This document shows, piece by piece, positions 3,963 to 55,802 of a stretch of 64,000 bases of DNA (positions are counted from its first letter, which is position 1; every line of letters begins with the position of its first letter). Made by a program: the position numbers and the translations under genes. The notes under the pieces were generated by a model. That model was given only the letters and a program-made list of their open reading frames with translations. It was not told where the DNA came from and did no database searches. Source of the DNA: a virus; the IMG/VR virus record IMGVR_UViG_3300008952_002488, positions 64,001-128,000 of that record. One strand, 5' to 3'.

Positions 3963-4418
3963 ATGTCCCAATATAAAATCACTAAAAAACGGTTAGCGCA
4001 AATCATAAAAGAAGAATACCAAAACCTTCAAGAACTTGAGGACCCTCGCAGCCCAAGCCCAATGTCGTGGGAACACGAGGGTGCGGCTGACGACTTCAGA
4101 AATCAGATTATGAATTTGGTCTTCAAATTAGCGCCCCTCACTCTTGATCCCAAGACTGCCAACGCCGTCGAAATTGAAATTCGAGATGTACTTAACACTC
4201 TCAACATTGGCACAAACCCAAGAGACCAGTACCGCCAAGAAGAATCCAAGAAAGCCAAGAAAGATTTTGATGGTGATGGTGAGGTAGAGTCCGCAGAAGC
4301 GGAGTGGAAGGGTTCTCGGGACAAAGCAATTGATAAAGAAAAGGAAGACGAGAAAGTTAGCAAGGAATCGCTGGACTCTATTCGTGACCTGATCATGCAA
4401 GAACTAAAGAACCTCTAA
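3963..4418 (+). CDS. Leader-bearing putative internal head protein with DxDGDG motif
   Basis: YKITKKRLAQIIKEEY leader; KKDFDGDGEVES..EW.GSRDKAI EF-hand-like loop; SD AAGGAG. Confidence 0.6.
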   Translation: MSQYKITKKRLAQIIKEEYQNLQELEDPRSPSPMSWEHEGAADDFRNQIMNLVFKLAPLTLDPKTANAVEIEIRDVLNTLNIGTNPRDQYRQEESKKAKKDFDGDGEVESAEAEWKGSRDKAIDKEKEDEKVSKESLDSIRDLIMQELKNL

Positions 4419-7843: not shown

Positions 7844-9430
7844 ATGAATGATGACCACATCTTGTTTGGTGATGAAATTAGACAGAAGCTTCTTTCTGGT
7901 GCTAATAAATTGACTGATGCGGTGGCTTCGACTCTTGGACCTCGTGGGCAAAATGTAATTCTCTATAGACGTGGTGCTGACCCTGTTATCACAAAGGATG
8001 GCGTAAGCGTTGCCCGTGTTGTAGAACTTGACGACGATTACGAGCAAGCAGCAGTGGAGGTGCTTCGCCAAGCAGCCCTCCAAACAGAAAAGACGAGTGG
8101 CGATGGCACAACGACCAGTACTGTTTTGGCTCGTGCCATACTGCTAGCAGCCAACAAGCACATTGCTGCCGGTGCCTCATCTACTGATATCAAGAGAGGG
8201 ATTGATGCAGCAGTTGAGGCAATATGTGACAGGATTACAGAACTCGCACAGCCAGTTTCCAGCGAGGAAGAGATCCGACATGTTGCAACAGTTTCTGCCA
8301 ACGGCGATGAGGCTATAGGGGCATTGATTGCCGAGGCAGTGGCTGCCGCAGGAAAAGACGGGTCTATCACCATTGAGGAAAGCCGTTCCCTGAAAACTAT
8401 TCTGGATGTTGTTGAGGGCTTCCGCTTCGATGGCGGCTTTGTCTCTCCACAGTTTGTAACAGACCAGAGGCGTGCAGTTATAGAATATAGAGATGCCCTC
8501 GTGTTTGTGACCGACGAGACTTTAGACAATGTTGAGGAGATGCTGTCAATTTTAGAGGTGGTGGCTCGTGATGGTCGCCCCTTTGTTATTGTGGCGGAAG
8601 AGATTGAGGGTCAACTTCTTGCGGCATTGATTATGAATCGTATGCGAAATGACATGAAGATTGCCGCAGTCAAGGCACCCAAGTACGGCGAAGAGCGACG
8701 CAGCCTTCTGGAGGATATTGCGCTGGTTACGGGAGCCACCTTCGTCAGCAAAGATAGTGGTATCAGACTCAGGGATGTCAAGCTGGAGCACCTGGGGTCT
8801 GTGAAAAGAATAGAGATCAGCAAGAGACGGACTATCTTATCTGACAGCGACGTTGACTATGGGGAATTAGAAAAAAGAGTAGAGTCCCTCACCGCTCTTA
8901 TGGAAGACACAGAAGACCTCAAGGAAGCCGAAGCAATCCAAGAGAGAATAACAAGACTTCAGTCTGCCGTCGCCGTCGTTCGCATCGGAGGAGCAACAGA
9001 AATCGAAGTCACAGAAAAGAAACACAGAGTTGAGGACGCCTTAGAGGCAGTCAGGTCAGCACAAGAGGAGGGGATTGTTCCTGGCGGCGGCACAGCTTTG
9101 ATAAAAGCTGCTCATGCGGTAAGGGTTGAGCTAGCCAACGAGGACGAACTTCGGGGCGCTCAAGCTCTAGCAGAAGCGTGTACGGCTCCAATGAAACAGA
9201 TACTCAAGAATGCAGACGTGTCCTCGGACCTAGTGATAAATACCCTTCCTCATGATGAAGAGAGTCTTAATGTTGGCTTTAATGCTAGGACTGAAAACTT
9301 TGAAGATTTAATCGAGTCGGGCGTCATCGACCCAGCAAAAACTGTGAAGTGTGCGTTACAAAACGCCGCTAGCGCAGCGGGAACGCTGCTCACAACTAAT
9401 TGTGCTGTTTTAAAGAAAGGTGGTGAATAA
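7844..9430 (+). CDS. groEL: Chaperonin GroEL (phage-type, no GGM tail)
   Basis: TLGPRGQNV, ITKDGVSVA, GDGTTT, AVKAP.YG, GIVPGGG, GVIDPAK. Confidence 0.97.
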   Translation: MNDDHILFGDEIRQKLLSGANKLTDAVASTLGPRGQNVILYRRGADPVITKDGVSVARVVELDDDYEQAAVEVLRQAALQTEKTSGDGTTTSTVLARAILLAANKHIAAGASSTDIKRGIDAAVEAICDRITELAQPVSSEEEIRHVATVSANGDEAIGALIAEAVAAAGKDGSITIEESRSLKTILDVVEGFRFDGGFVSPQFVTDQRRAVIEYRDALVFVTDETLDNVEEMLSILEVVARDGRPFVIVAEEIEGQLLAALIMNRMRNDMKIAAVKAPKYGEERRSLLEDIALVTGATFVSKDSGIRLRDVKLEHLGSVKRIEISKRRTILSDSDVDYGELEKRVESLTALMEDTEDLKEAEAIQERITRLQSAVAVVRIGGATEIEVTEKKHRVEDALEAVRSAQEEGIVPGGGTALIKAAHAVRVELANEDELRGAQALAEACTAPMKQILKNADVSSDLVINTLPHDEESLNVGFNARTENFEDLIESGVIDPAKTVKCALQNAASAAGTLLTTNCAVLKKGGE

Positions 9431-22063: not shown

Positions 22064-23104
22064 ATGTCTGTAGACTTCAAGACTTTTGTGAGCCTAGCAC
22101 CCAGCGTGAGTGCTGCTCGATTGCCGGTTCTTCTCCGTGGTCGCCACGGTATTGGTAAGAGCCAAGTTGTTTATCAGTTGGCTGCCGCTGCCGGCTTGCC
22201 TGTTGTTGAGCGTCGTGCCAGCCAGATGACCGAGGGTGACTTGGTTGGTCTGCCTAGCATCGAAGGCAATCGCACCGCCTTCAATCCTCCTGATTGGTTT
22301 AAGCAGGCTTGTGAAGAGCCGGTGGTCTTGTTCCTCGATGAGGTTGACCGTGCTACCTTGGAAGTTCGCCAAGGAATCTTTGAGTTGACGGACAGCCGGA
22401 AGCTCAACGGTCACAACCTTCACGACGATACGCTGATCTTCGCTGCCGTCAACGGCGGGGAACACGGCGAGAACTACCAAGTGAATGAGATGGATCCTGC
22501 GGAACTTGACCGCTGGTCTGTTTGGGACATTGAGCCCACGGTAGAAGATTGGCTCGCATGGGCTAAGAACAATGTTGACGGTCTCATTTGGGACTTCATC
22601 AACCAAAACCGTGCCCACCTTGAGCACAACGGTGACATTGAGCCGAACAAGCGGTATCCCAGCCGTCGGTCTTGGGATCGCCTTGACAAGGTGCTGAAGC
22701 AGGCAGACGCTTTGGAAGCCAGCCCTGCAATGTTTAACCTGGCTCAGAGCTTCGTCGGCTTCGAAGCTGCTGTCGCTCTCAACGACTACGCTAAGAACTA
22801 CGAGCGGGTTGTCACGGTTGAGCAACTGCTCGAAGGTGAGCGGGTGGAAGCCCTGGCTGCTTTCTCCCTGAATGAACACTGCGCCTTGATCGAAAAGGTC
22901 GAGGCTGAAGAAATCCTCAAGGCTGAACTCAGCGAGGGTCACCTTGAGAACCTTGCCAACTACTTCGTGACGCTGCCCAGCGAGGCTGCCATGAAGCTTT
23001 GGGGAGTGATCTCCCAAGCCGGTGTCCAAGACAATGTGGTGAAGTTCCACGGTGCCAACGAAGGTGCTGTCGGTGCCCACCTCTCCAAAATCCTGGGAGC
23101 CTAA
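22064..23104 (+). CDS. MoxR-type AAA+ ATPase
   Basis: GRHGIGKS Walker A, LFLDEVDRA Walker B, AAVN sensor, MDPAELDRW Arg finger, PSRRSW. Confidence 0.92.
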   Translation: MSVDFKTFVSLAPSVSAARLPVLLRGRHGIGKSQVVYQLAAAAGLPVVERRASQMTEGDLVGLPSIEGNRTAFNPPDWFKQACEEPVVLFLDEVDRATLEVRQGIFELTDSRKLNGHNLHDDTLIFAAVNGGEHGENYQVNEMDPAELDRWSVWDIEPTVEDWLAWAKNNVDGLIWDFINQNRAHLEHNGDIEPNKRYPSRRSWDRLDKVLKQADALEASPAMFNLAQSFVGFEAAVALNDYAKNYERVVTVEQLLEGERVEALAAFSLNEHCALIEKVEAEEILKAELSEGHLENLANYFVTLPSEAAMKLWGVISQAGVQDNVVKFHGANEGAVGAHLSKILGA

Positions 23105-23126
23105 CTCTCTCTCATCCCAGGTCAGG

Positions 23127-23155
23127 AGCCCGGCGCAAGCTGGGCTTTCTGTTTT
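23127..23155 (+). terminator. Intrinsic terminator
   Basis: AGCCCGGC-GCAA-GCTGGGCT-TTCTGTTTT. Confidence 0.7.
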
Positions 23156-23173
23156 GAGGGCAGCAATAAAAAG

Positions 23174-23222
23174 TTGACAAACACTGGATCAATGCTATTA
23201 TACTAGTGGAGAGAGGGACAGC
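23174..23222 (+). promoter_or_regulatory. Early promoter TTGACA-N13-TGCTATTATACT
   Basis: Repeated promoter class. Confidence 0.88.
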
Positions 23223-24443
23223 ATGAGCTTTGACCTTAAACTGCACGCTTACCGACTGCTCATGGATGAGCCGTTCTTTGCTGCACTCAGCCGCAAGATT
23301 GAGAAGCGTGCCGACTATGGCATCCCAACTGCTGGTGTTCGGGTTGATCCCGACTCTGCTCAGTTTGAGATGATCTACAACCCTGACTTCTTTGCCAGCC
23401 TGCCTGAAGAGCAGGTTCGTGGTGTTCTCAAGCATGAGTTCTACCACTTGATCTTCGAGCATGTCACCAGCCGTAAGCCAGAGGGAGTTCCTCACAAGGC
23501 TTGGAACATTGCTGCTGACCTGGCTATCAACAGCCACCTCCAAGGTGAACTGCCCGAGATGGCATGTATGCCTGGTGTCGGTCCCTTCGAAGATCTTCCA
23601 CTACACAAGACCGCTGAGTGGTACCTTGCCAACCTGCCCAAGAGTGAAGAGGGTGAGGGCGAAGGTGATAGCTCTGAGAGCGGTGAGGGCGATGCTAGCG
23701 GTGAGTCCGGTGGCGAGGGTCAGCCTAGTGCTGGCAACCCTGGCAGCTTTGATGATCACTCCGGTTGGGATGACAACGCTGACAGCCCTGCCCAGCAGGC
23801 AGCCAATCAGATGGCAAAGGAACGCCTCAAGCAAGCCATGAAGGATGCTGCCCAAGAGGCTAGCCAGTCTGCCAAAGGCTGGGGCTCAATGAGCGGGGAA
23901 GTAAAACAAGAAATCTTAAAACGACTGGAGACCAAGGTAGACTGGAAGAAGGTACTGAGGTACTTCATCAAGACCTCCCAGCGTGCCAGCCGCAGGTCCA
24001 GCGTCAAGCGGATCAACAAGCGGTATGCCTACATTCACCCAGGCAAGAAGACCCAGCGGCAGGCAAAGATTGCCATCGCCATTGACCAGTCCGGCTCTGT
24101 CAGCGATGACATGCTGTCACAGTTCTTCGGAGAACTCAACAAGCTAGCCAAGCTGGCAGAGTTCACGGTGGTGCCCTTCGATACGGATGTTGACGAGAGC
24201 AAGGTCTACGTTTGGAAGAAAGGTCAGAGCAAGCCAGCCGAGCGTGTGCTCTGCGGGGGAACCTGCTTCAACGCTCCCACCGATTACGTCAACGCTAACA
24301 GCTTTGATGGTGTCATTATTCTGACGGACATGGAAGCTCCCAAGCCCAAAGCCTGCAAGGCTCAACGGATGTGGATGACGGATGAGCGTGGTGCCAGCCG
24401 TCCCTACTTCAAGACCAACGAGAAGGTAATCCAGATCGATTGA
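23223..24443 (+). CDS. Metallopeptidase plus vWA domain protein (DUF2201-like), MoxR partner
   Basis: HEFYH, NIAADLAIN, acidic linker, DQSGS MIDAS, GGT.F, LTD. Confidence 0.9.
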   Translation: MSFDLKLHAYRLLMDEPFFAALSRKIEKRADYGIPTAGVRVDPDSAQFEMIYNPDFFASLPEEQVRGVLKHEFYHLIFEHVTSRKPEGVPHKAWNIAADLAINSHLQGELPEMACMPGVGPFEDLPLHKTAEWYLANLPKSEEGEGEGDSSESGEGDASGESGGEGQPSAGNPGSFDDHSGWDDNADSPAQQAANQMAKERLKQAMKDAAQEASQSAKGWGSMSGEVKQEILKRLETKVDWKKVLRYFIKTSQRASRRSSVKRINKRYAYIHPGKKTQRQAKIAIAIDQSGSVSDDMLSQFFGELNKLAKLAEFTVVPFDTDVDESKVYVWKKGQSKPAERVLCGGTCFNAPTDYVNANSFDGVIILTDMEAPKPKACKAQRMWMTDERGASRPYFKTNEKVIQID

Positions 24444-26443: not shown

Positions 26444-26790
26444 TGTTATATAAGTCATTGATTTTACTAGTATTTGCAAATATGTTTAATCAAGCCTATA
26501 AAGTTGAGCAAATCCAATGCCCTAAATGGGTGCCTGGAACAAATCAAGTTCTACCTCAAGGCGTAAGTCTATCACCTGAATTGGAATTAAAAAATCGAGT
26601 GCGATGCTATTGTGAGGTTGTGAAGGCAAAGGAGGCGCAGTGTCTCGCTCGCCATGTGCCGGCAACCATCTGTAAAGCCCGCACCGCTCGGTGGGTTGAG
26701 GACAACTTAAAACTCAAGGAAAGCTTCCAACTCGTTAATGGAGTATCTTCTCCGCCTAGACGAGACAGGATGATGAATGTCGAGCCGTAG
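26443..26790 (+). CDS. Exported Cys-containing protein
   Basis: TAATG coupling; hydrophobic N-terminus; 5 Cys. Confidence 0.5.
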   Translation: MLYKSLILLVFANMFNQAYKVEQIQCPKWVPGTNQVLPQGVSLSPELELKNRVRCYCEVVKAKEAQCLARHVPATICKARTARWVEDNLKLKESFQLVNGVSSPPRRDRMMNVEP

Positions 26791-27181
26791 AGGCGTTACT
26801 CTTATTATAGTTCTTGTTATGTCTGTGTTCATTGGTATGAGTGCAATGTTATTATTTTCTACCGTCAATATGGAAATGATGATTGCCGGCAATACACGGC
26901 GTATCAACCAAGCAAAAATTTCGGCGGCGAGCGGGCTCGCTCACTTCACTGCCCTCAACCTTACTTACGACACACTTAGAGACCGAGCTTCTGGTCTGCA
27001 AACTTTGCAGATCTTGCCCGACACCCAACTATCGACTAGGACACATTACGAGGTAAAGGTTCATTTTTATCCCCGCCTAAGTGAGCGGCAATATGTGGTC
27101 GAAAGCATCGGCTATTATACCAAGGGCAACAAGGTTCTTGCCTTGCATCCAATAAAAGCTCTCTTTGATGGCGGTCAATAA
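26777..27181 (+). CDS. PilX-like type IV minor pilin
   Basis: Class III signal RRG|VTLIIVLVM without Glu5, then E..IAGN.R...QA...A.SGL (PilX N-terminal pattern) and Y.VES.G. Confidence 0.75.
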   Translation: MSSRRGVTLIIVLVMSVFIGMSAMLLFSTVNMEMMIAGNTRRINQAKISAASGLAHFTALNLTYDTLRDRASGLQTLQILPDTQLSTRTHYEVKVHFYPRLSERQYVVESIGYYTKGNKVLALHPIKALFDGGQ

Positions 27182-27190
27182 AAAAACAAA

Positions 27191-27199
27191 ACTATTTAT
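27191..27199 (+). promoter_or_regulatory. Candidate late promoter ACTATTTAT heading the leader-protein cassette
   Basis: Motif identical to 562, 3088 and 44578. Confidence 0.6.
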
Positions 27200-27221
27200 C
27201 TATACCTACGGAGGTTTTAAA

Positions 27222-27353
27222 ATGATTACTAAAACTAAGCTCTGGAAGACAATAAGAGATGCATTGCGAGAAAATGCACGTTCTCAATCAATAACCGAAA
27301 AGGTTATGCAAAAGATTAAAGAGCAGGAAAAAGAAGAAAGTGAATCTAAGTGA
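27222..27353 (+). CDS. Small leader-type peptide (43 aa)
   Basis: GGAGG SD; MITKTKLWKTIRDALRE. Confidence 0.55.
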   Translation: MITKTKLWKTIRDALRENARSQSITEKVMQKIKEQEKEESESK

Positions 27354-27534
27354 GCTTAGAGACTTCATCAAGGAAGTTATAAAAGAAGCAGCCGAAGAAG
27401 GTAAGATGCAAAAAATTTATCGTCGTTCTTTTAAGGACATGATAAAGAAAACAAAATCTGGTAAAAATCCAAACACTGCCCCATTTACCGAAGAAGCTTC
27501 CGATGGCGGTGAATCAGGTCCGCCAAAACAATGA
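27340..27534 (+). CDS. Small leader-bearing protein
   Basis: MNLSELRDFIKEVIKE. Confidence 0.6.
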   Translation: MNLSELRDFIKEVIKEAAEEGKMQKIYRRSFKDMIKKTKSGKNPNTAPFTEEASDGGESGPPKQ

Positions 27535-28361
27535 AAAAACTAATGGACCGATGGCGAGTGTTCATCAATGAAGAAGTACTTAAAAAGATTTATGTTCACG
27601 GATATGTGAAGCCGGAAAAGGCTTTCCGTACACTTGTCGAGTGGGAAGCCTTTGTTAATACAATCCTAAAGTTCCAAAAAGACGGTCATTATATTAGCCA
27701 TAGTCATGGAGAGCTTGTGGGACCCGAAGAGTTAGTATCTCTTATAAAAGATTTTTATGGTTTCCAATTAAATGTTGATGTAGAGAGGTACGAACTCTTA
27801 ACAAGTAAAAATGTCCTTGATCATATTGAGGATTTTGTTAACCATAGGTTCTGGGGTTTAGAACAAGAGTTTAAAATATATTTTGATGACATCAGCGAAC
27901 TTCGATTTGCCTACTTTTATTCTCGTGGAGATCTCGAACCATACGTCTTGGTAGATGATGCTTTCACTGAGCAAGTATATGGATCAACCAACAATCCAAA
28001 AATATTATATCATTACACACACGAGGAAGGGGTCGAAAGAATCCAGAGAGCAATTGATGGCGGTGACCCTTTCGACATTTCTGCCTATACAGTAGCGCAG
28101 CGTGATTTCTTTCGCAAAAAATCAAATAAGATAATGAAGTTCGAAGGAAACGTTCGTGCCGGTTTTCGCAGTGATGTAAAATCTTATTCTGTTAGTAGTG
28201 GAAGAAAGTGCGTCAATCTTCATCGCATGGGATACCCAGGAAAAGATAAAAATAATCTCTGCACCAATCTGGAAGACGATTGCAATGGTGAACTGAGAAC
28301 ATCTTTGTGGAACGAGTTCATAGCCACACCAGTCAAAATCTTAAAGGTCTTCGATAAATGA
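27531..28361 (+). CDS. Leader-bearing protein with possible ADP-ribosyltransferase-fold C-terminal domain
   Basis: MKKLMDRWRVFINEE leader; LYHYT...I, DISAYT, WNEFI. Confidence 0.5.
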   Translation: MKKLMDRWRVFINEEVLKKIYVHGYVKPEKAFRTLVEWEAFVNTILKFQKDGHYISHSHGELVGPEELVSLIKDFYGFQLNVDVERYELLTSKNVLDHIEDFVNHRFWGLEQEFKIYFDDISELRFAYFYSRGDLEPYVLVDDAFTEQVYGSTNNPKILYHYTHEEGVERIQRAIDGGDPFDISAYTVAQRDFFRKKSNKIMKFEGNVRAGFRSDVKSYSVSSGRKCVNLHRMGYPGKDKNNLCTNLEDDCNGELRTSLWNEFIATPVKILKVFDK

Positions 28362-28807
28362 AACATCTAATGAGGGAGTGGAGAAAATTCCTCTCGGAGG
28401 GAGAAGTAAAGTACAGAGGCATTCTGATGATTAAACCAGACCCTGCAATAATTGCACAAGTGCAAGAGATGCAAGACACACTCCCAGAATATGGGGTCCC
28501 CTTAGAAGAAAAAGATCTCCATGTTACCTTGATTCATCAAAGTATCTTAAAGCCGTTTAAGAAGCAACTAAAAGAAATAGACTTCCCGCCCCCGCCTTCT
28601 ATAGAGATAGAACCCAGAGTTTTCCAGAGAAAATCTCCCGGCAAAGAATCATGGGCTACTAGGCTTTTAAATCAGGACGAGATGAGAGATTATGTAAGGC
28701 AGGTCATGGAGCTTCTCGGCAGCCAGAATACAGACCCAGAACCCGAACGAGTCTTTCACATAACGATTGGAAATCTCACAGGCAATCCGCACGACTCCGT
28801 AAGATGA
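28358..28807 (+). CDS. Leader-bearing 2H phosphoesterase (T4 57B/Acb1-like fold)
   Basis: MKHLMREWRKFLSE leader; two HxT motifs (LHVTL, FHITI). Confidence 0.8.
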   Translation: MKHLMREWRKFLSEGEVKYRGILMIKPDPAIIAQVQEMQDTLPEYGVPLEEKDLHVTLIHQSILKPFKKQLKEIDFPPPPSIEIEPRVFQRKSPGKESWATRLLNQDEMRDYVRQVMELLGSQNTDPEPERVFHITIGNLTGNPHDSVR

Positions 28808-29517
28808 TAGAAATCCTCAGAGAATTAATAATGGAAGAGATCGTCAGAGGCAGAGCCCTTGATCGCTATGCTACCATGGCTAGCAGGGAAACCATAAACG
28901 CCATCAAAGACGAATCGGTCAGAGAAGCTTTTAACACTAACGGCAGAGTTGACTTCGCACTGGACGTTCCCGAGATTACAGATGACATAGACTACTTGAG
29001 AACGATTATCATTAAGATGAGAGAAGGTGAATATGTTTCTAGTGATGGCTCTTATGAGTTTGATTTAGATGCTGATGATGAGCAGCGTAAGACTTCCGAC
29101 ATTTATGTAAACATTACTTTACCTCCTCGGTATGATGAAGATTATTCTTTTATGTCCCGCTTGGTTGCGGAGTTAAAGGAGACCTTCCGCCACGAGTTGG
29201 AGCACAGTTCCCAGAGCACCGAAGAGTTGATGGCTGTACAGCGAGCAGTACCCGACCGAGAGGTGTGGAAAGACTTGGAGACAGCGGAGGAATATTACCT
29301 TTCGGATGCTGAGGTGAAGGCTCATGTGGCTGGCATCTATAAAAAGGCAAAGAGTTTCCGAAAGCCCGCTACAAATGTGTTGGAGCGAGTTCTCAATATT
29401 ATCTACAATACAGGATTGTACTACGAGCACGACCCTGCAAAACTTGCAGAGTTGATGGAGAAGGTGCAAACACGCTGGGCGAACTATTTATTTGATAGAT
29501 ACCCGAGGGCTCAATAA
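28804..29517 (+). CDS. Leader-bearing zincin metallopeptidase
   Basis: MIEILRELIMEEI leader; RHELEH..Q, YY....EV.AH. Confidence 0.7.
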   Translation: MIEILRELIMEEIVRGRALDRYATMASRETINAIKDESVREAFNTNGRVDFALDVPEITDDIDYLRTIIIKMREGEYVSSDGSYEFDLDADDEQRKTSDIYVNITLPPRYDEDYSFMSRLVAELKETFRHELEHSSQSTEELMAVQRAVPDREVWKDLETAEEYYLSDAEVKAHVAGIYKKAKSFRKPATNVLERVLNIIYNTGLYYEHDPAKLAELMEKVQTRWANYLFDRYPRAQ

Positions 29518-30113
29518 TGAAACACAAACTTATAATGGAAAACTGGCGACTCTATGAGCAGCGGCTTTTATGGGAACAGGAGTTTGATGAATTTTTTAAT
29601 AAACACTTTGTTGTTCTTGAGGAAGGGTTTATAGATTGGGCCGTCTCTAAAGGTAGAGATGCCAAACAGGCAGTCATGGGCGTTATTAACGACATGAAAG
29701 ATTGGACGGCGGAAAAAATTAAAGAATTTGTTCAGTTTATGGGCAAGAAAATGCAAGCCTTCCTTCAAGGTCTGAGAGATAAAGGACTCCTTGGAAAATG
29801 GCAATCTAGGAAAGAACAAAGCGCACTGAGATTGCTGATGACAAACAAACACTTCGATCTCGCAGTCATGATTTTTACCACAATTGCAAAAATGACAGGG
29901 GGTTTTATTGTTGACAAAGTAGCAAAAATGCCAGAGTTAATACAGAGTGTTCTTAAATTGCTGGATAACCCAGTGGTTGCGTTGAAAGAGTTGTTCGGCG
30001 ATATTTCAGATATTAAGACATTGATTCAGAAATTTATGGCATATAGAGAAGATAGGAAAACTTTAAATGTAGCACAAATGGGAGACTGGTCAGATTTTGG
30101 AGGTCTTGTATAA
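29517..30113 (+). CDS. Leader-bearing amphipathic helical protein
   Basis: MKHKLIMENWRLYE leader; VLEEGFIDW; same layout as 3125..3952. Confidence 0.6.
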   Translation: MKHKLIMENWRLYEQRLLWEQEFDEFFNKHFVVLEEGFIDWAVSKGRDAKQAVMGVINDMKDWTAEKIKEFVQFMGKKMQAFLQGLRDKGLLGKWQSRKEQSALRLLMTNKHFDLAVMIFTTIAKMTGGFIVDKVAKMPELIQSVLKLLDNPVVALKELFGDISDIKTLIQKFMAYREDRKTLNVAQMGDWSDFGGLV

Positions 30114-30116
30114 ACC

Positions 30117-31247
30117 ATGAAACTCCTGATGGAAAACTGGCGCAAGTTCCTGAAGGAAGGCATCACCGATGTTGTCTATCATTATACTGCCGGTGTTGAA
30201 AAAGCAGCCAAGATACTTGAAGAGAATAGGTTCATGGCGTCAGGTGGATTTACCAAAGAGGTGGAGGCTGAGTTAGGTAAGGGTAAGCTTTATTATTTTT
30301 CCACCGCAAGAACACCAGCAAATGCTTACACCGGCAACTATCCACAAGGGGCTATTTTCAAATTGGATGGCCGGGCTTTGTCCCAAAAATATAAAGGAGT
30401 CCCTGTTGATTATTGGGCTGATCCAAAACGGGGCAGGTCATCTAAGAAAGCAGCCAATGTTGATGAGCCGGGGTCTATAGAAGGTTTTGAGGCAGAAGAT
30501 AGAATCCTTCTAGACGAACCCTATATTGATGATGCCGACACCTACATTGATGAGATACATTTTGCTATTCCGATTTATAAAAAGGAAAAGGATATGTTCT
30601 CAGGTAAAATAGAACGACGGGCCCGAAGTAGTATTGCCTGGTGGCAATTGGACGGATTACAACGAGGCGTGGCTGTGGCGGAACAAAGAAATATTCCTTA
30701 TTATATTCACATAGACCAAAGCACATATCCGCACGTTGAAGTTGGAAAGCGAAAAGCCATCACCAGTTTGTCTGACTTTTTGGTAGAACTAGAGAAGTCT
30801 GGTGTAAAAGTTGGTGAGCCGCCAGAGCCACTCGGTGCCGATTCTATGGCCGCTCGGAAAAAGAGGGGAGAAAGAAAAGAGTTCGGCGAAGATGAAATCT
30901 TTTTGTTTGTCCAAGCAGCCCAAGACATTCTTGCTGGGAAAGAGCAGTTTGAAGGAGCCAGCGTACAAGGTAAAGTTGGCTATAGAGAAGAAAGCGACCG
31001 CAAGGATTTAGGTAAGGTAATGTTCCGAAATCTTGCTGGTCAGCCAGATGGAGCGGGTCGTTTTTATAGGGATATTGATAACTCCCTTCATAACGCCGGC
31101 AAAAACCCCGAAGCCCGAAAAACTGTTGAGATGCTCGCCTCACTTATGCGGAGCACAAGGAAAACGACGATAAAAGATTTTGAAACCTATATAAATCAGG
31201 TCTATAAGCAGAACCATCCAGACGGAGACCCAACCGGGTATAGATAA
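30117..31247 (+). CDS. Leader-bearing ADP-ribosyltransferase-fold protein
   Basis: MKLLMENWRKFLKE|G leader; VYHYT...IL, YFSTAR, FKLDG..L, EAEDRI (H-S-E ART pattern). Confidence 0.6.
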   Translation: MKLLMENWRKFLKEGITDVVYHYTAGVEKAAKILEENRFMASGGFTKEVEAELGKGKLYYFSTARTPANAYTGNYPQGAIFKLDGRALSQKYKGVPVDYWADPKRGRSSKKAANVDEPGSIEGFEAEDRILLDEPYIDDADTYIDEIHFAIPIYKKEKDMFSGKIERRARSSIAWWQLDGLQRGVAVAEQRNIPYYIHIDQSTYPHVEVGKRKAITSLSDFLVELEKSGVKVGEPPEPLGADSMAARKKRGERKEFGEDEIFLFVQAAQDILAGKEQFEGASVQGKVGYREESDRKDLGKVMFRNLAGQPDGAGRFYRDIDNSLHNAGKNPEARKTVEMLASLMRSTRKTTIKDFETYINQVYKQNHPDGDPTGYR

Positions 31248-31249
31248 CA

Positions 31250-31540
31250 ATGAAAATTACAAAAGCCTTATTGAGAACGATTATCAAAGAAGAACTCCAA
31301 GAAGCCTTCGGGCTAGAGAAGGATTTTCAGCCTGGTGCTTCTGTACACTGGAATGTGTTAGCAAAAGTGATTAAGACCACAGCAAGCGGTCGAGAGAAAG
31401 TTGATTACGAAAGAATGATGATGACTGGAGAAGTTGTTGAGCTTATTACAAGCCCTGGTGCAGCATTGGGCGTTGCTATTGTTCGAGATCCCGACGGCAA
31501 CACACACGAGATAGAACTTTCAGAACTCACATTAGCCTAA
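31250..31540 (+). CDS. Leader-bearing SH3-like protein
   Basis: MKITKALLRTIIKEELQE leader; FQPGASV...GEVVE. Confidence 0.65.
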   Translation: MKITKALLRTIIKEELQEAFGLEKDFQPGASVHWNVLAKVIKTTASGREKVDYERMMMTGEVVELITSPGAALGVAIVRDPDGNTHEIELSELTLA

Positions 31541-31568: not shown

Positions 31569-32759
31569 ATGAGTATTTTCCGAGAACACAAAACAATTGC
31601 GGACAGAGCATCGGCTGATAGATCACGGCATCGTAAAAAAATTGAAAAAGCGATTAAAGACAGTGTTAAAGATGTTGTAGCCGAAGAAAGCATCATCGGG
31701 CAAAGCGGAAAAAAGAAAATAAGGATCCCAGTAAAAGGGATCAAAGAGCACAGATTTGTTTTCGGAGCCAATGAAAAAAATAAACGAGTTGGATCTGCCC
31801 AAGGTAAAAACATAAATAAAGGACAGAGGATCGGAAAGAAACAAGCTCCCACACAAAGTCAAGGAAACAAGCCCGGCAAAGAAGCCGGCGAGGAAATGTA
31901 TGAAATAGAAATGAGCCTAGAAGAGCTAGCGGAATATCTATTCAACGATCTAAACCTCCCTGAGTTGGAGAAAAAGAAATTTAAATTTATCACCGAAGAG
32001 AAAGTCAAACGCAAAGGTAAGCGACCCTATGGAATCCGTCCACGTTTATCAAAAAAAGAAACTATAAAACAAAAGATTAGAAGAAAGAAGGCTGCCATAA
32101 AGGCAGGTACTTATGATCCTAATAGTGAAGAGAGATTTACATTTCACGACAGCGACTTACGTTATAAACATATAGCCCCAGTGCAAAAAGAAAACACGAC
32201 GGCTGCTGTGTTTTTTATTATGGACGTGTCAGGATCTATGACAAAGGCAAAAAAATATCTTGCTCGAAGCTTTTTCTTTCTCCTTTATCAATTTCTAAAT
32301 CATCGTTATTCGGCGATAGATGTTATTTTTGTGTCCCATACTGCGGAAGCCAACGAAGTAAACGAGGAACAATTTTTTACACAGGTTCCTAATGGCGGAA
32401 CACTTGTCTCTACTGGATTAAAAAAGGTTGAAGAGATTATTGAGAAACGATATCATCCTAATAACTGGAACTTGTATACTTTTTATTGTGGGGATGGAGA
32501 CAATTGGCCAATCGACAATAAAGAATCTCTAGCCAACTTTCGAAAGTTAAAAGATATAAACCAAATGATGTGTTACACCGAGATTGGAGAAATGAGAGGA
32601 GTAAGTGATGCTTACTTATTTTCAGGTAAAGCAGAAAAGAAATTATGGGACTGGCTAAAGCTGATAGAAGATAAAGACTTTAAGCGAATAAGGATTGTGA
32701 ACCATAAGGACATATGGGCTTCCTTTAAAAAATTGTTCGGGGGAAATAATAATGTCTGA
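31569..32759 (+). CDS. yeaH: YeaH/YhbH (DUF444) vWA-type protein
   Basis: DR.RH, IPVKGI.E.RF.FG, L.LP.L, DLRY, MDVSGSM, GGT.VS, DGDNW. Confidence 0.92.
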   Translation: MSIFREHKTIADRASADRSRHRKKIEKAIKDSVKDVVAEESIIGQSGKKKIRIPVKGIKEHRFVFGANEKNKRVGSAQGKNINKGQRIGKKQAPTQSQGNKPGKEAGEEMYEIEMSLEELAEYLFNDLNLPELEKKKFKFITEEKVKRKGKRPYGIRPRLSKKETIKQKIRRKKAAIKAGTYDPNSEERFTFHDSDLRYKHIAPVQKENTTAAVFFIMDVSGSMTKAKKYLARSFFFLLYQFLNHRYSAIDVIFVSHTAEANEVNEEQFFTQVPNGGTLVSTGLKKVEEIIEKRYHPNNWNLYTFYCGDGDNWPIDNKESLANFRKLKDINQMMCYTEIGEMRGVSDAYLFSGKAEKKLWDWLKLIEDKDFKRIRIVNHKDIWASFKKLFGGNNNV

Positions 32760-34068
32760 TTGGTCTATGGAAGAGCTTCATGAATGGGATACAAAGATTT
32801 GTGCGCTTGGCCAAGCAATGGATCTTGACTGGTATCCTATTGAGTATGAAATATGTGACTATAAAGAAATGATTGGACATATGGCATACACAGGGCTACC
32901 CACACATTATCGCCATTGGTCATATGGAAAAGCATTTGATAGAATCCAGACAGAATACAATTTGGGAATGTCTGGTCTGCCTTATGAGATGATTATTAAT
33001 TCCAACCCGAGCATCTCATATCTCATGACCGAAAATCCGATGGCCACCCACATACTTACAATGGCACATTGTGTCGGTCACAGTGACTTTTTTAAGAACA
33101 ACCGTATGTTTGCTGAGACCGGGGCGGATACCGCCTTAGACCGTTTTAAAGCTGCCGGTAAACGTATCAAAAAATACATGGAAGACCCGAACATTGGTAT
33201 AGACAAAGTAGAGAAAATTATTGATGCCTGTCACGCCATCCAATTTCAAGTTCCGAGAACGCCGGGAGTTAAACGAAGAGATCCCAAAAAACTGAAAAAC
33301 TATTATCAACAACTGATGCTTAATGATAAGACCGGCTATTGGGACAATTTTGATTTAGAAAAAATACCGCTAGAGCCTGATCAAAATGTTCTTAGGTTTA
33401 TTGCTGATCACAATCGATTTCTTGAGAATTGGGAAATAGACATAATCAACATTATTGAGCAGCAATCACGTTATTTTGTTCCACAAGCTTGTACTAAGAT
33501 TATGAATGAGGGTTGGGCTTGTTTTATACATGAAAAAATAGTTAATGCTCTTAGGCTTCCCGATGAATATCACATTTCTTTTATTCGACTACATAACCAA
33601 GTAGTAAGGGCACATCTGGGAAGAATAAACCCCTACCACCTAGGCTTTAAGATGTTTAAATATATTGAGAAACACAAAGGATTTGAAGAATGTATGCGTA
33701 TAAGAGAAACTTGTAACGATGAGACATTTTTAAAAACACATCTTAACTATGATTTATGTAAGGAACTGAATTTGTTTAGTTATGCATTTAATAAGAGCGA
33801 AGGGATCAATAGAATAACTGAAGTTTCTGCGGAAGATACTTGGAGAACTATTCGGGACGACCTAATTAGGAATGTAGGTCTCAATTCTATACCTGTTATA
33901 GTTGTGGAAGAATTGCTACAAGATGGCACACTAATTTTAAAACATGTGCATGATGGAAGGGATCTAGAATTGACAGAAGCAAATAAAGTGTTTGAGCACA
34001 TTAACAATTTGTGGGAAGGTGGGGTAAGATTCACTACAATAATAGAAGACGATCTTTGGGAGTTTTGA
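32752..34068 (+). CDS. spoVR: SpoVR/YcgB family protein
   Basis: G.PT.Y.HWSYGK, YE.IINSNP, AHC.GHSDFFKNN, TKIMNEGWA, NPY.LG. Confidence 0.95.
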   Translation: MSDWSMEELHEWDTKICALGQAMDLDWYPIEYEICDYKEMIGHMAYTGLPTHYRHWSYGKAFDRIQTEYNLGMSGLPYEMIINSNPSISYLMTENPMATHILTMAHCVGHSDFFKNNRMFAETGADTALDRFKAAGKRIKKYMEDPNIGIDKVEKIIDACHAIQFQVPRTPGVKRRDPKKLKNYYQQLMLNDKTGYWDNFDLEKIPLEPDQNVLRFIADHNRFLENWEIDIINIIEQQSRYFVPQACTKIMNEGWACFIHEKIVNALRLPDEYHISFIRLHNQVVRAHLGRINPYHLGFKMFKYIEKHKGFEECMRIRETCNDETFLKTHLNYDLCKELNLFSYAFNKSEGINRITEVSAEDTWRTIRDDLIRNVGLNSIPVIVVEELLQDGTLILKHVHDGRDLELTEANKVFEHINNLWEGGVRFTTIIEDDLWEF

Positions 34069-34071
34069 TAG

Positions 34072-36015
34072 ATGACAAGAAATAACAAATCTGATAAGTT
34101 TCTGAAACTTGTTGGCAAACACCGTGAAAAAAAGAAAAAGAATAAGTTTCGTGGAACATTGTCCGATTATCTTAAAATAATAGAAGAAGACATTGGGGTT
34201 TCTAAACTCGCCCACCGAAGACTATTTGATGCCATCATAAACCATGGCATTACAAAGATGTCAAAATCTTCGGATCGTTGTAATAAACTTTTCAACGGCG
34301 AGAAGATAAGAACATATGATTATTTCCAAAGCAAGTTTTTTGGAATGGAGAGATCTCTAGCAAAGATTATGAGGTTCCTCCGTTCAGCAGCACTGAAGGG
34401 AGAAGAAAGTCGCCAGGTTCTTTTACTGCTGGGCCCAGTTGGTGCTGGCAAGTCTGCACTGATGGAACACATTAAAGGAGCCCTGGAAGAATGTGATCCA
34501 ATGTATCACATTGATGGGTGTCCTGTCCACGAGGAACCCCTCCACCTCATTCCTCGCTCTCTTCGGGAGGAGTTTCAAAAAATATATGGGATTCGCATTG
34601 AGGGGGACTTGTGTCCTGTTTGTAGGTTTAGATTAAAGGAAGAATTTGGCAGCGATTATACATCAATGCCCATTACGCAGTCATCTTTTTCTGTTCGTGG
34701 TAGACGTGGTGTAGGAGTTGTTCCACCAATGGACGCAAATAGTCAGGATGTGACAATTTTGGTCGGCAGCGAAGATATATCCAAATTAGATTTATACCCC
34801 GAAGATGACCCCAGGGTCCTTTCTTTAAACGGGGCGTTTAATGTTGGAAATAGAGGTATCGTAGAGTTCGTTGAAGTCTTTAAAAACGAAATTGAATTCT
34901 TACACACCATGATTACTGCCACTCAAGAGAAAGCTGTTCCTTCGCCAGGAAAAGGTCCCATGATATATTTTGATGGGGTTATCTTGGCGCACTGTAATGA
35001 GGCGGAATGGAACAAGTTTAAGTCAGAAAATACAAATGAAGCTATCTTGGATAGAATAGTTAGAGTAAATGTGCCGTACTGTTTGGAAGTAACTGAAGAA
35101 ATAAAGATTTATGAAAAAATGTTGGGACTATCTGACTTCGATGGTCACATTGCACCGCATACACTTGAGATTGCTTCGATGTTTGCTGTGTTAAGTCGAT
35201 TGCGTCCGTCCAATAAAGTAGATGCTCTTACTAAGATGAAATTATATGATGGTAAAGATGTGATCGAAAAGGGGCATGTAAAGAAAATAGACATTAATGA
35301 CTTGAGAGATGAGGCACGAGATGAAGGGATGACCGGGATCTCTACAAGATTCATCATGAAAGCAATTGATTCGGCATTGTCAGATAGTGAGAAAAATATG
35401 GTAACCCCCATATCCATCCGAGAAACGCTTATAAAGCAAGTCAAAGACCAAATAGTGGTAGAAGACGATAGAAATCGGTACCTTGATTTCCTTGGAAAGA
35501 CCCTTCACGATGAATATTTGAATATCTTAGAGAAAGAAATCACAAAAGCATTCGTTTCTGCCTATGATGAACAGGCAGAAGCCTTATTTAACAACTATCT
35601 GGACCATGCAGAAGCATATGTGAACATGTCCACTGTTAAAGATGCCATCACAAACGAAGAAATAACACCAGATGACAAATTTATGGAGTCAATTGAGGAA
35701 CAAATTGGAATTACTGGTACTTCTAAAGAGAATTTCCGAGTTGATATCACTGCATACATGTTTTCTAAGCTTCGGAGAGGCGAAAAAGTCGATTGGCAGT
35801 CGTATGCGCCACTCAAAGAGGCAATTGAGAGTAAATTGACCTCTTCAGTCAAGCAAATTTCACGAATTGTGACCAAATCCAAGTCTAGAGACAAAAAACA
35901 GCAAGGAAAGTACAATGAAATGGTAAAAACCTTGATTGATGAGTATGGATACGACGAAAACTCAGCAGAAGAGGTCATAAAGTTCGCCGCAAACAACTTA
36001 TGGCGAGATAGTTAG
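34072..36015 (+). CDS. prkA: PrkA/YeaG AAA+ serine kinase/ATPase
   Basis: LLGPVGAGKS, CP.HEEPL, GNRGIVEFVEVFK, AHCNE.EW, NEAILDR, EGMTGISTRF. Confidence 0.95.
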   Translation: MTRNNKSDKFLKLVGKHREKKKKNKFRGTLSDYLKIIEEDIGVSKLAHRRLFDAIINHGITKMSKSSDRCNKLFNGEKIRTYDYFQSKFFGMERSLAKIMRFLRSAALKGEESRQVLLLLGPVGAGKSALMEHIKGALEECDPMYHIDGCPVHEEPLHLIPRSLREEFQKIYGIRIEGDLCPVCRFRLKEEFGSDYTSMPITQSSFSVRGRRGVGVVPPMDANSQDVTILVGSEDISKLDLYPEDDPRVLSLNGAFNVGNRGIVEFVEVFKNEIEFLHTMITATQEKAVPSPGKGPMIYFDGVILAHCNEAEWNKFKSENTNEAILDRIVRVNVPYCLEVTEEIKIYEKMLGLSDFDGHIAPHTLEIASMFAVLSRLRPSNKVDALTKMKLYDGKDVIEKGHVKKIDINDLRDEARDEGMTGISTRFIMKAIDSALSDSEKNMVTPISIRETLIKQVKDQIVVEDDRNRYLDFLGKTLHDEYLNILEKEITKAFVSAYDEQAEALFNNYLDHAEAYVNMSTVKDAITNEEITPDDKFMESIEEQIGITGTSKENFRVDITAYMFSKLRRGEKVDWQSYAPLKEAIESKLTSSVKQISRIVTKSKSRDKKQQGKYNEMVKTLIDEYGYDENSAEEVIKFAANNLWRDS

Positions 36016-44628: not shown

Positions 44629-45723
44629 TTGGCTTTCGGACTGGTAGGCGCAAGCGGTTCTTTTATAGCAAATGCAGAAATGCTCGGTGGAATTGTCACT
44701 GGCTCGGGACAAGAGTTTTTAGCACTTCCAGTTTCAGGAACAGTTCTTGGCGGACTAAGCGGATTAACCACCAATGAATGGAGTCGCTTCTATCTTAGTG
44801 ATAGTTTTGGTAATGCGTCTGGTTCCGTTATCCAAGCTCTTAACTATCTGAGCGCAGCACTTGGCGGCGCTGGATCCGGGGACGTAACCGGGCCCGGCTC
44901 GGCTACTGATAATGCCATTGCTAGATTTGACGGATCCACCGGAAAAATTATACAGAACACAACAGGACTAGTAGCTTCTGATGCTGGTGTTTTGTCGAGT
45001 TCTGTGGGGGCTACTCTCGGAAATCTTATATTAAATGATGATGCTAGATCTCTAACACTTTCGGGCACAATATCTTCTTCTGCCGGCGCTACCTTTTTAG
45101 GGCACCTTTTTACTAACAATCTAAATGTTTCTGGTACCTTGACTGCGGCAAGCTTTACGCCGTCAGCAGTTTCGGGCGCAGTAAAAATAAATGTATTTAC
45201 GCATAAGATCCTTAGTAACAACAGTATTGAGACTTCAGCATCGCTCGTTGCTAAGACTACGGTTTCTGGTGCAGGTGCTGCATCGTTCGCATCTTTAACA
45301 ACAGAAGAAGCATCGATCTCTGTTGCTGGCGTTATGTCAGGTGCTGGTGGTATTTCAGGTCAAAGTCTAGTAATTGATAATCTTACTAAGATTAATTCTG
45401 GCGGTGTTCTTTCAAGCTCTGTTGGATCAACGCTTGGAAATCTGATTCTTAATGATGACTCTGTATCTTTAAAATTATCTGGATCGATGACCGGAAGCGG
45501 TTTGGCTACTTTCTCTAATATTTCCCTAGCACAAGGGGGGGGATATAAGCCGGCACTAATAGTATCGAGTAGTGCTATTTCTACAGCGGCTGATTCAGCA
45601 GCTATACCCAGAATAGTTTTACAAGGAACAGATAACTTAGGTAGCCTAGCAGATTTTATGATTTCAGTTAGCGGTGGTATCCTTAGAGTCGAACAATTAG
45701 AAGTGGGAAGTTGGCCGGTATAA
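44629..45723 (+). CDS. Fibre/spike structural protein (shorter paralog 2)
   Basis: N- and C-termini nearly identical to 42280..44520; TTG start; late box at 44578. Confidence 0.75.
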   Translation: MAFGLVGASGSFIANAEMLGGIVTGSGQEFLALPVSGTVLGGLSGLTTNEWSRFYLSDSFGNASGSVIQALNYLSAALGGAGSGDVTGPGSATDNAIARFDGSTGKIIQNTTGLVASDAGVLSSSVGATLGNLILNDDARSLTLSGTISSSAGATFLGHLFTNNLNVSGTLTAASFTPSAVSGAVKINVFTHKILSNNSIETSASLVAKTTVSGAGAASFASLTTEEASISVAGVMSGAGGISGQSLVIDNLTKINSGGVLSSSVGSTLGNLILNDDSVSLKLSGSMTGSGLATFSNISLAQGGGYKPALIVSSSAISTAADSAAIPRIVLQGTDNLGSLADFMISVSGGILRVEQLEVGSWPV

Positions 45724-54097: not shown

Positions 54098-54423
54098 GGG
54101 GGTAACCGGTATCGATTGATGGGAAAATAGAAAAGGTGCAAGGGTGAGGGAAGCGTGGCTCACTAAAAACGCTTAAAACTTTAATCGCCAATGACGATTT
54201 CGAAATGGAGATGGCAGCTTAAAAACCTGACCTCCCATGAGGCGACGGCAGCCAATAAACAGAAAGCCGTATTTGGGTGTCCTAAGTGCTTTTGATTGTT
54301 TTAGCCGCAATAAAACGATCTAGTCAAGCGGGCTGTCTGACGAAAAAAACAGACCCAACCTTGTGAATGACCCCTTCTATAGAACTAGGCAAGACGGGAG
54401 TTCGATTCTCCCTACCTCCACCA
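54098..54423 (+). ncRNA. ssrA: tmRNA, tag ANDDFEMEMAA
   Basis: GGGGGTA/TACCTCC acceptor with G3:U70, A discriminator plus CCA; GGGAG-TTCGATT-CTCCC T-arm; tag ORF 54187-54222. Confidence 0.95.
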
Positions 54424-54445
54424 GCCGCCTTCGGGCGGCTTTTTT
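54423..54445 (+). terminator. Intrinsic terminator with cUUCGg loop
   Basis: AGCCGCC-TTCG-GGCGGCT-TTTTT. Confidence 0.9.
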
Positions 54446-54494
54446 CTTTCTCTCTCAGCTATTTACTTTAGAAGTGTTCCTGAAAGGAAAAAAT

Positions 54495-55802
54495 ATGACA
54501 AAGACATTGATTTTAGACACAAACGTTTATCTCACAGAGGTAAGCTCGTTATTTGCATTCGGAAAAAGTGATATTGCAATCCCAACAATTATATTGGATG
54601 AAATAGATAAACACAAACAAAGGCAAGATACGGCGGGATTTAATGCTAGAATGATGAACCGTGTTTTAGATAATCTGCGGAGAAAAGGTAGTTTATTTGA
54701 GGGAGTTTCTCTAGGAAGAGGGAAAGGGAAATTATATGCGGCACAATATGATCCCCGCTATATGCCGGCAGGAATGTCCACCCAAGATTCAGACAATAAA
54801 ATAATTGCCATAGCGATTCGTCTCAAAATGGAAGGCAAAGAAATAGCAATCGTCTCCCGTGATCTGAATATGAGAGTAAAATGTGATGCTTTTGGTTTAG
54901 AATGTCATGATTATCAACCACAAAAGGTGATTAAATCTGTAGAGAAGCTATTTGACGGATGTGAAGAGGTTCTAGTTGAAGGAGAGGTTATTGACGATTT
55001 TTACGAAGATAAAGAGATTCTTTTAGAAGAACAAAATATCAAACTGTTTCCAAATCAATATTTGATTTTAAGATCAGAAAAAGATACCAAAAAATCAGCC
55101 CTGTGTCGCTTTTTAAATTATGAAAAACCCTTGAGAAAAGTATATTCTTACCAAGATATATGGGGACTTTCAGCTAACAATAAAGAGCAGCAGTTTGCTA
55201 TGGATCTCTTATTTGATCCGTCGGTTTCTATAGTTTCGCTGACAGGACAAGCAGGAACTGGCAAAACACTCATAGCTGCTGCTTGTGGTCTAGAACAAGT
55301 CTTGAACAGTACAAGATCTTCGGGAGGTTACGACAAGTTAATAATTACTAGACCTGTACAGCCAATGGGTAGAGATATCGGTTTTTTACCAGGGACCCTG
55401 GAAGAGAAAATGATGCCATGGGTTGCCCCCATCAGGGATAATCTTGAGCATTTATTTGGGGACAGAACTGCGCTTGATCTGCACATGGATCAAGGAACCG
55501 TCGAAATTGAAGCAATGACCTATATTCGAGGTCGTTCCATCTCCAACGCTTTCATGATCGTTGACGAGGCTCAGAATTTAACACCGCATGAATTAAAGAC
55601 TATAATAACCAGGGTCGGACATGGAACTAAATTAGTGCTTACAGGCGATATTCAGCAGATAGACAATTCTTACGTTGACGCAGTATCCAATGGATTGACA
55701 TATGCAGTTGAGAAATTTAAACAATATGACATTTCTGGTCACATAACCCTTATTAAGGGAGAGAGATCTAAATTGGCAACATTGGCATCGGAGATTTTAT
55801 GA
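54495..55802 (+). CDS. phoH: PIN-PhoH (PhoH2/YlaK-type) protein
   Basis: ILDTNV and D.NMRVK PIN motifs; GQAGTGKT, GFLPG.LEEKM, YIRGRS, DEAQN, GD.QQID. Confidence 0.93.
   Translation: MTKTLILDTNVYLTEVSSLFAFGKSDIAIPTIILDEIDKHKQRQDTAGFNARMMNRVLDNLRRKGSLFEGVSLGRGKGKLYAAQYDPRYMPAGMSTQDSDNKIIAIAIRLKMEGKEIAIVSRDLNMRVKCDAFGLECHDYQPQKVIKSVEKLFDGCEEVLVEGEVIDDFYEDKEILLEEQNIKLFPNQYLILRSEKDTKKSALCRFLNYEKPLRKVYSYQDIWGLSANNKEQQFAMDLLFDPSVSIVSLTGQAGTGKTLIAAACGLEQVLNSTRSSGGYDKLIITRPVQPMGRDIGFLPGTLEEKMMPWVAPIRDNLEHLFGDRTALDLHMDQGTVEIEAMTYIRGRSISNAFMIVDEAQNLTPHELKTIITRVGHGTKLVLTGDIQQIDNSYVDAVSNGLTYAVEKFKQYDISGHITLIKGERSKLATLASEIL

Follow-up and report, generated by a model that had tools for sequence, protein, structure and literature searches.

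The internal-protein loci of T-even phages join a conserved targeting sequence to diverse cargo (PMC3012670; PMC9026906). Prohead proteases of the T4 family cut after Glu, in T4 itself after (Leu/Ile)-x-Glu, and the targeting sequences are N-terminal propeptides of 10–20 residues (PMC5694885; PMC9026906); the properties of the T4 targeting sequence referred to below are taken from these two sources. Proteases related to the T4 enzyme cut the propeptides of ejection proteins after (A/S/G)-x-Glu in the giant phages phiKZ, 201phi2-1, and SPN3US (PMC5694885; PMC7411985). In addition, ART, 2H, and zincin-like domains have been proposed to be packed into the head and injected by way of polyvalent proteins and MuF/portal fusions, a route argued to be common for ART and 2H domains in myoviruses, and giant multidomain proteins are held to be delivered by the virion (PMC5512222; PMC9503650). 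The locus considered here is a cassette of eight genes (c1 to c8, positions 27222–31540) within a stretch of 64,000 nucleotides (nt), hereafter the window, which represents bases 64001–128000 of one 171,926-bp virus contig (IMG/VR record IMGVR_UViG_3300008952_002488); positions given as genome coordinates refer to the whole contig. Members of this cassette carry short, shared leader peptides in front of unrelated bodies. Judged from their sequences, these leaders are probably capsid targeting sequences of the T4 type with cleavage after Glu, and the cassette a swappable payload locus.

Two leader types account for most of the tagged genes. Leader A comprises 14 residues, roughly M-K-x-L-M-E-N-W-R-K-F-L-x-E. 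A hidden Markov model (HMM) of this leader, applied to the six-frame translation of the 172-kb genome, identified exactly eight open reading frames (ORFs), all on the + strand and scoring 21–32 bits; all eight matches lie at the initiator Met, and the next match scores 6 bits. The carriers are c3, c4, c6, and c7, a gene at window 3125, and three genes at genome 7916, 50049, and 50744. The window 3125 gene (3125–3952, + strand) encodes 275 amino acids (aa), scores 27.2 bits, and has its own copy, at 3088, of the promoter-like box ACTATTTAT that is described below. At most positions of leader A the codons differ synonymously while the residues are kept, and conservation is therefore exerted at the protein level. 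Leader B, M-K-I-T-K-x-x-L-R-K-I-I-K-E-E-L-x-E, is found on c8 and about eleven further genes, including seven consecutive ones at genome 1240–4267 and one that lies within the head module (genome 19475). Many of the proteins with leader B combine small size with acidity and low complexity. A further leader-B-like gene (window 3963–4418, + strand, 151 aa, 14 bits) has a body similar to that of the leader-B gene at genome 3236.

The original prediction had treated the leaders as a property of the cassette and had proposed that the whole genome be scanned with models of both. Such scans show that the leaders are not confined in this way: they yield exactly eight genes for leader A and about a dozen for leader B, at least 15 of the leader genes lie outside the cassette, and two of these fall in the window (3125 and 3963). 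In total there are about 20 leader genes, or approximately one gene in ten, arranged in about six clusters, two of which lie just upstream of the head module. The same groups emerged de novo from an all-versus-all comparison of N-termini, in which 41 pairs reached the threshold compared with 0.33 in shuffles; apart from three pairs (two of true paralogues, one small), these are the A and B groups. Leaders have a mean helical moment of 0.52 versus 0.27 for the other genes (p = 2e-9), and in the AlphaFold2 (AF2) model of c7 the leader forms a helix from residue 2 to 11. Leaders A and B have a frame in common, with a Met-Lys start, Arg-Lys at positions 9–10, hydrophobic residues at 11–12, and Glu at 14; the leaders end in [LIV]-x-E, the Glu usually being residue 14. 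For leader A, then, what is found is a short peptide shared at the extreme N-terminus of unrelated proteins, leader B being the exception through its internal copies. A full-text literature search for the leader strings returned no relevant paper.

Within the cassette, the eight ORFs are all on the + strand and either overlap by 1–14 nt or are separated by 2–3 nt. The prediction of eight tightly coupled genes with unrelated bodies was borne out by the ORF coordinates and by BLAST of body against body, which gave one weak pair among 23 proteins; when the profiles of c3 and c7 were compared, only residues 1–24 aligned. The N-termini had also been quoted correctly as amphipathic and ending in hydrophobic-x-Glu, and [LIVMF]-x-E occurs within the first 12–20 residues of all eight proteins. 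The view that all eight have related leaders stands for c3, c4, c6, and c7 (leader A) and for c8 (leader B), the other three having leaders that are weak or of another type. Of these, c1 (27222–27353, + strand) is a small conserved protein of 43 aa with a weak match to the leader B HMM (9.7 bits); it is kept at the same position in eight related contigs, and its membership in the leader set is doubtful. c2 (27340–27534, + strand) has a GTG start and encodes a small basic protein of 64 aa, the body having a pI of 9.5. Its leader B is degenerate (10.3 bits), those of its relatives being clearer, and the closest N-terminus to its own is that of the gene at genome 19475, inside the head module. 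c5 (28804–29517, + strand, 237 aa) joins a third leader type to a body with an invariant HExxH motif.

Leader A is found at 28.3 bits on c3 (27531–28361, + strand, 276 aa), whose body is without a fold match, and at 31.1 bits on c4 (28358–28807, + strand, 149 aa), whose body is 2H-phosphoesterase-like. c6 (29517–30113, + strand, 198 aa) carries a variant of leader A (21.2 bits) and has an orthologue with leader A in a related contig (L016). In c7 (30117–31247, + strand, 376 aa), leader A (32.1 bits) precedes an ART-fold domain (approximately residues 15–210) and a helical C-terminal domain. The last gene, c8 (31250–31540, + strand, 96 aa), combines leader B (45.4 bits) with a small body; it adjoins yeaH in relatives and is kept there. 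Searches of Pfam and PHROG with the eight proteins found no significant family, the only match being a sub-threshold one to LigT for c4. Searches of cultured phages at the DNA and protein levels with the cassette, c4, c5, and c8 found no relatives; only c7 has some.

The leaders travel between cargoes, and the cargoes between leaders. When IMG/VR was searched with a degenerate codon pattern covering eight residues of leader A, 41 sites were found, of which 40 are genuine N-termini; at least twelve unrelated bodies are represented, among them P-loop (Walker A) kinase-like proteins in the marine viral contigs L119 and L096. In the window itself, a zeta-toxin/AAA_33-like gene (1085–2113) has no leader. 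Members of the c5 family carry the leader of c5 itself, leader A, an 'LREYI'-type leader, others, or none, and those of the c4 (2H) family carry leaders A, B, or 'LREYI', short T4-like leaders, a leader plus linker, or none; domains of the c4 family are also embedded in much larger proteins (2537 and 4831 residues). The c7 (ART) family has lineage-specific leaders in 70 viral contigs, several of which closely resemble the T4 targeting sequence. Leaders are kept as peptides down to a body identity of approximately 30%. The suggestion of a modular tag with swappable cargo was thus well founded, the same cargo families being found under leader A, leader B, the third type, other short leaders, or none, or within giant polyvalent proteins.

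The terminal motif follows the tags. A hydrophobic-x-Glu stands just before the body in 102 of 102 c7 homologues and in 50 of 53 c5 homologues, compared with 0.2 in background windows; the corresponding figure for the c4 family, 46 of 84, depends on a loose anchor and carries no weight. In homologues of c7, c4, and c5 that have no leader, the sequence begins at the domain itself and the motif is missing; hydrophobic-x-Glu is therefore a feature of the tag rather than of the domains. That the Glu might be part of the ART domain was considered and ruled out, as leaderless homologues lack it. Among cultured phages, the c7 relative of Dickeya phage JA29 has no leader. Where neighbouring genes of cultured phages were checked, Alishewanella phage Slickus01 and Pseudomonas phage Lu11 (genes 0205–0207) proved to have distinct leaders, each common to unrelated neighbour genes, the Lu11 leader having no Glu, and in Microcystis phage Mel-JY01 the leader of the c7 relative is common to three paralogues. 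Tags of this kind could be studied experimentally in Lu11, Slickus01, and Mel-JY01.

The cassette occupies a hypervariable position. In eleven related contigs the flanks are 75–93% identical and the gene set that they enclose varies among contigs, one relative having seven consecutive leader-A genes. Nearly every gene gained or replaced at the locus bears leader A or B, and c5, which comes and goes, bears the third type. The left flank of the related contigs consists of AAA5, DUF2201, and a pilin-like gene and the right flank of yeaH, spoVR, and prkA. In the window, the genes for a MoxR-like AAA_5 ATPase and, after it, a DUF2201 metallopeptidase/VWA protein occupy 22064–24443, a pair that is kept upstream in relatives. 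The conserved left border is a pilin-like small protein with a hydrophobic N-terminal segment (26777–27181), for which searches of Pfam and PHROG gave no match. The complete yeaH (DUF444)-spoVR-prkA trio directly follows the cassette (31569–36015) and is 75–90% identical in all related contigs; a copy of ACTATTTAT with one mismatch lies 15 nt before yeaH.

The genome also encodes the machinery that a capsid targeting system requires, namely a T4-type head module with a gp21-type protease, as identified by matches to Pfam profiles. This module includes a T4-type portal (PF07230, 3e-80), a prohead protease of the Peptidase_S77 (gp21) type at genome 17706–18299 (PF03420, 5e-28), an acidic scaffold-like protein, and a gp23-type major capsid protein (PF07068, 3e-73); a large terminase, a tail sheath, and a gp19-like tail tube are likewise encoded. 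The first 58 residues of the capsid protein contain four L-x-E motifs, of which those at 47–49 and 56–58 lie near the point to which the N-terminus of mature T4 gp23 aligns. The prohead protease carries L-Q-E ending at residue 9, the counterpart of L-I-E-9 in T4 gp21 (PMC9026906). Among sequenced phages, even the closest relatives of the capsid protein are only approximately 40% identical to it, and homologues of the cassette proteins form hundreds of clusters in marine metagenomes; the phage therefore represents an abundant, uncultured, and distant lineage of the T4 type. Elsewhere in the window are a phage-encoded GroEL-type chaperonin (7844–9430; Cpn60_TCP1, 7e-64) and a PIN domain fused to a PhoH-like ATPase (54363–55802).

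The tags are real and modular, and they occur together with a T4-type head module, the terminal motif, and a box common to leader genes and structural genes. If they act as in T4, the leader would form an amphipathic helix of 12–18 residues through which the attached protein docks in the scaffolding core during prohead assembly, and the gp21-type (Peptidase_S77) protease would then cut after the Glu of the terminal hydrophobic-x-Glu. The freed cargo would remain in the head and enter the host cell with the DNA, and the cassette at 27.2–31.5 kb would be a hypervariable locus at which leader-tagged genes are gained, lost, and swapped. Co-occurrence with a gp21-like protease, for which the original prediction had suggested a test, is consistent with this scheme: Peptidase_S77 is present in eight of ten long contigs with a leader-tagged ART gene and in six of six when those at least 90% complete are considered, although many large myoviruses have S77 anyway and these frequencies consequently lack a baseline.

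Several points besides this missing baseline weigh against capsid targeting. Docking in the prohead, cleavage by the protease, and delivery to the host are steps that we infer only, and docking of another kind is conceivable for an amphipathic helix with so much Lys, Arg, and Glu. The leader A of the window 3125 gene ends in F-L-E instead of [LIV]-x-E, and c4 and c5 are without relatives among cultured phages. The temporal class of the ACTATTTAT box is deduced from the genes that neighbour it. Furthermore, a 395-aa protein (genome 1723–2910) has a leader-like start and two internal copies of leader B, at approximately residues 166 and 258, and a 398-aa protein of a relative (L012:9065–10260) has an internal copy at residue 238, so that leader B is not strictly an N-terminal signal. 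These two proteins could be polyproteins cut at several sites or fused genes, or leader B could be a binding module.

Such observations leave some room for other explanations. The leader might be a docking helix that is kept on the protein and directs it to a different partner or place, such as the inner membrane, another part of the virion, a GroEL-like chaperonin, or YeaH-SpoVR-PrkA. The strong amphipathicity of the leaders, the constant adjacency of the cassette to yeaH-spoVR-prkA in relatives, the chaperonin encoded by the phage, and the internal copies of leader B are all compatible with this. Nevertheless, leader genes occur at five other places in the genome, distant from prkA and in part adjoining the head module or within it; given their polarity and small length, the leaders could not anchor a protein stably in a membrane, and the same cargo in other T4-type phages bears leaders close to the T4 targeting sequence. 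Simple docking would also leave the conserved terminal hydrophobic-x-Glu unexplained, and a role of this kind is considered unlikely. Somewhat less likely again is that the leaders do target the prohead but are left uncleaved, or that the tagged proteins are parts of the scaffold or core that are degraded and expelled, and hence are assembly factors that are not injected. Targeting and processing are separable in T4, where a protein with Asp as the final residue of the sequence is still targeted but no longer cut (PMC9026906), and most core proteins are degraded and lost; the small, acidic, low-complexity character of many leader-B proteins would fit such a fate, as would the protein with repeated internal B motifs, which is reminiscent of a multiply cut core protein. 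Against this, the Glu is nearly invariant, and it would make little sense to degrade the cargo of leader A, namely folded and conserved enzymes (ART fold, 2H, HExxH) in which catalytic-type residues are invariant.

An explanation at the level of RNA or DNA, in which the shared 5' ends would act as a translation or mRNA element or as homology for recombination and the likeness of the peptides would be a by-product, appears very improbable. The genes are translationally coupled, many of them without an obvious Shine-Dalgarno sequence, and the tandem leader-B genes at genome 2907–4267 are similar in DNA as well; however, the synonymous codon differences at most positions of leader A largely refute it, and both the retention of the peptide as bodies diverge and the 40 true N-terminal leaders recovered from viral contigs with the degenerate codon pattern point the same way. 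Beyond capsid targeting as such, a more elaborate arrangement can be envisaged. Leader A goes with enzymes of 150–380 residues and leader B with small, mostly acidic and core-like proteins, and further types are exchanged between lineages. This might, tentatively, reflect a loading code with several addresses, in which the tags set the copy number, location, or fate of a protein in the head and an injected proteome of at least 20 proteins per phage could be read from sequence.

The original prediction had noted one box before the cassette, where in fact there are two copies of ACTATTTAT, at 27191–27199 (+ strand), 31 nt before c1, and inside the cassette at 29483–29491 (+ strand), 34 nt before c6. 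Genome-wide, exact copies of this 9-mer number 11 on the + strand and one on the − strand, compared with a shuffle mean of 1.2; they are intergenic and always lie 30–80 nt before a start codon, as at window 3088, 27191, 29483, and 44578. Six of the 11 precede leader genes, the two in the cassette included, and others lie 30–75 nt before the tail sheath and adaptor-like genes. Copies with one mismatch precede the tail tube and scaffold-like genes, and the giant structural genes have an exact or one-mismatch copy. The T4 late consensus is TATAAATA, from which ACTATTTAT differs, and TATAAATA is rare on the coding strand here (three copies). By its placement, ACTATTTAT is a candidate late promoter. 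An exact or one-mismatch copy also precedes each of two genes at window 42280–44520 and 44629–45723; their products, of 746 and 364 aa, have approximately 30 N-terminal residues in common and are probably paralogous structural proteins.

The identity of the cargo is clearest for c7. Its AF2 model (predicted local distance difference test [pLDDT] 85.3) matched Tpt1 in VIA-align with Z 9.2 (root-mean-square deviation 2.8 over 113 residues) and DarT with Z 7.3–8.6. The seven highest-ranking VIA-align matches comprise only Tpt1, DarT, and nucleotide-ADP-ribose enzymes of a similar kind, and DarT holds the top rank in Foldseek. Residues E14, H22, Y59, E125, and E127 are invariant in the family. The model thus supports assignment of residues 15–210 to an ART fold of the His-Tyr-Glu clade, DarT/Tpt1-like. 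Two ART-like domains had been proposed for the cassette, and the second, c3, gained no support: its AF2 model is poor (pLDDT 63.5), the best match in the fold search reached Z 3.3 and gave no fold match, and Atlas feature scores of 0.87 to ART clusters are weak leads only. Homologues of c3 form 560 clusters in marine metagenomes.

For c4, the predicted 2H phosphoesterase is supported at the sequence level. The protein has two H-x-T motifs, with H55, T57, and H134 invariant or nearly so across 45 homologues, and although c4 itself scores 21 bits against a 2H-clan Pfam profile (LigT) with a cut-off of 23.3, six of the 45 relatives match 2_5_RNA_ligase2 (best 5e-7), four match LigT, and others match HVSL and AKAP7. 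Its best PDB profile match is an RNA 2',3'-cyclic phosphodiesterase, with both motifs aligned (E 0.28); no chain of Acb1, the anti-CBASS nuclease of T4, was found in this search at E ≤ 1, though the two may be distantly related. The zincin protease proposed for c5 stands as far as its motif is concerned, HExxH being present in 56 of 57 homologues and the exception being truncated, whereas membership in a zincin family gained nothing from Pfam or PDB, neither of which gave a match; Atlas leads to LPD23 and SprT-like clusters are weak. Single-sequence PDB searches with c4 and c5 yielded nothing useful.

If the tags act like the T4 targeting sequence, the proteins carried into the cell could be listed from sequence for a very common group of marine phages that has no cultured member and for which virion proteomics is impossible. 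Cargo delivered in this way, comprising an ART-fold protein, a 2H protein, an HExxH protein, and in relatives a P-loop kinase, would act before phage gene expression, and these enzymes are good candidates for roles in counter-defence or host take-over, the counter-defence label itself being a guess from domain types. The swapping of leaders between lineages provides a natural data set on the co-evolution of tag and head, and the leaders may prove useful as new tags by which phage heads are loaded with foreign proteins.

Compared with known systems, the closest likeness is to the capsid targeting sequences of T4. Both consist of a short, amphipathic N-terminal peptide that ends in hydrophobic-x-Glu and is found on unrelated proteins, both accompany head genes of the gp20, gp21, and gp23 types, and in both the tagged genes occupy variable loci with conserved flanks and include ART-fold cargo, the T4 counterpart being Alt. 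In contrast to T4, where the leader has 10 residues, the leaders here have 12–18 and differ in sequence; there are at least three leader types in this one genome and about 20 tagged genes versus a handful in T4, and the leader-A cargo consists mostly of enzymes of 150–380 residues rather than small basic proteins. The ART domain of c7 has His-Tyr-Glu and is DarT/Tpt1-like, whereas Alt has Arg-Ser-Glu; one leader type here also occurs inside proteins. The giant phages phiKZ, 201phi2-1, and SPN3US are similar in having a gp21-related protease that trims many proteins of the head interior after a Glu, and the SPN3US paralogues gp53 and gp54 are identical in their N-terminal 15 residues, including the cutting motif; however, the propeptides of these phages are mostly longer than 100 residues with a small residue before x-Glu, whereas those described here are short and T4-like, have Leu, Ile, or Val, and stand on unrelated proteins. 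With polyvalent proteins and MuF/portal fusions the cassette has the same domain classes in common, down to the c4-family domains inside the 2537- and 4831-residue proteins, but in the cassette every domain has a gene and a short tag to itself, which by analogy would be another route to packaging in the head. In T-even phages this principle has been recognized since the 1990s; the novel elements are the leader sequences, the presence of several types in this one genome, the scale of approximately one gene in ten, the enzyme-rich cargo, the swapping of leaders within cargo families, and the setting in an abundant uncultured marine lineage.

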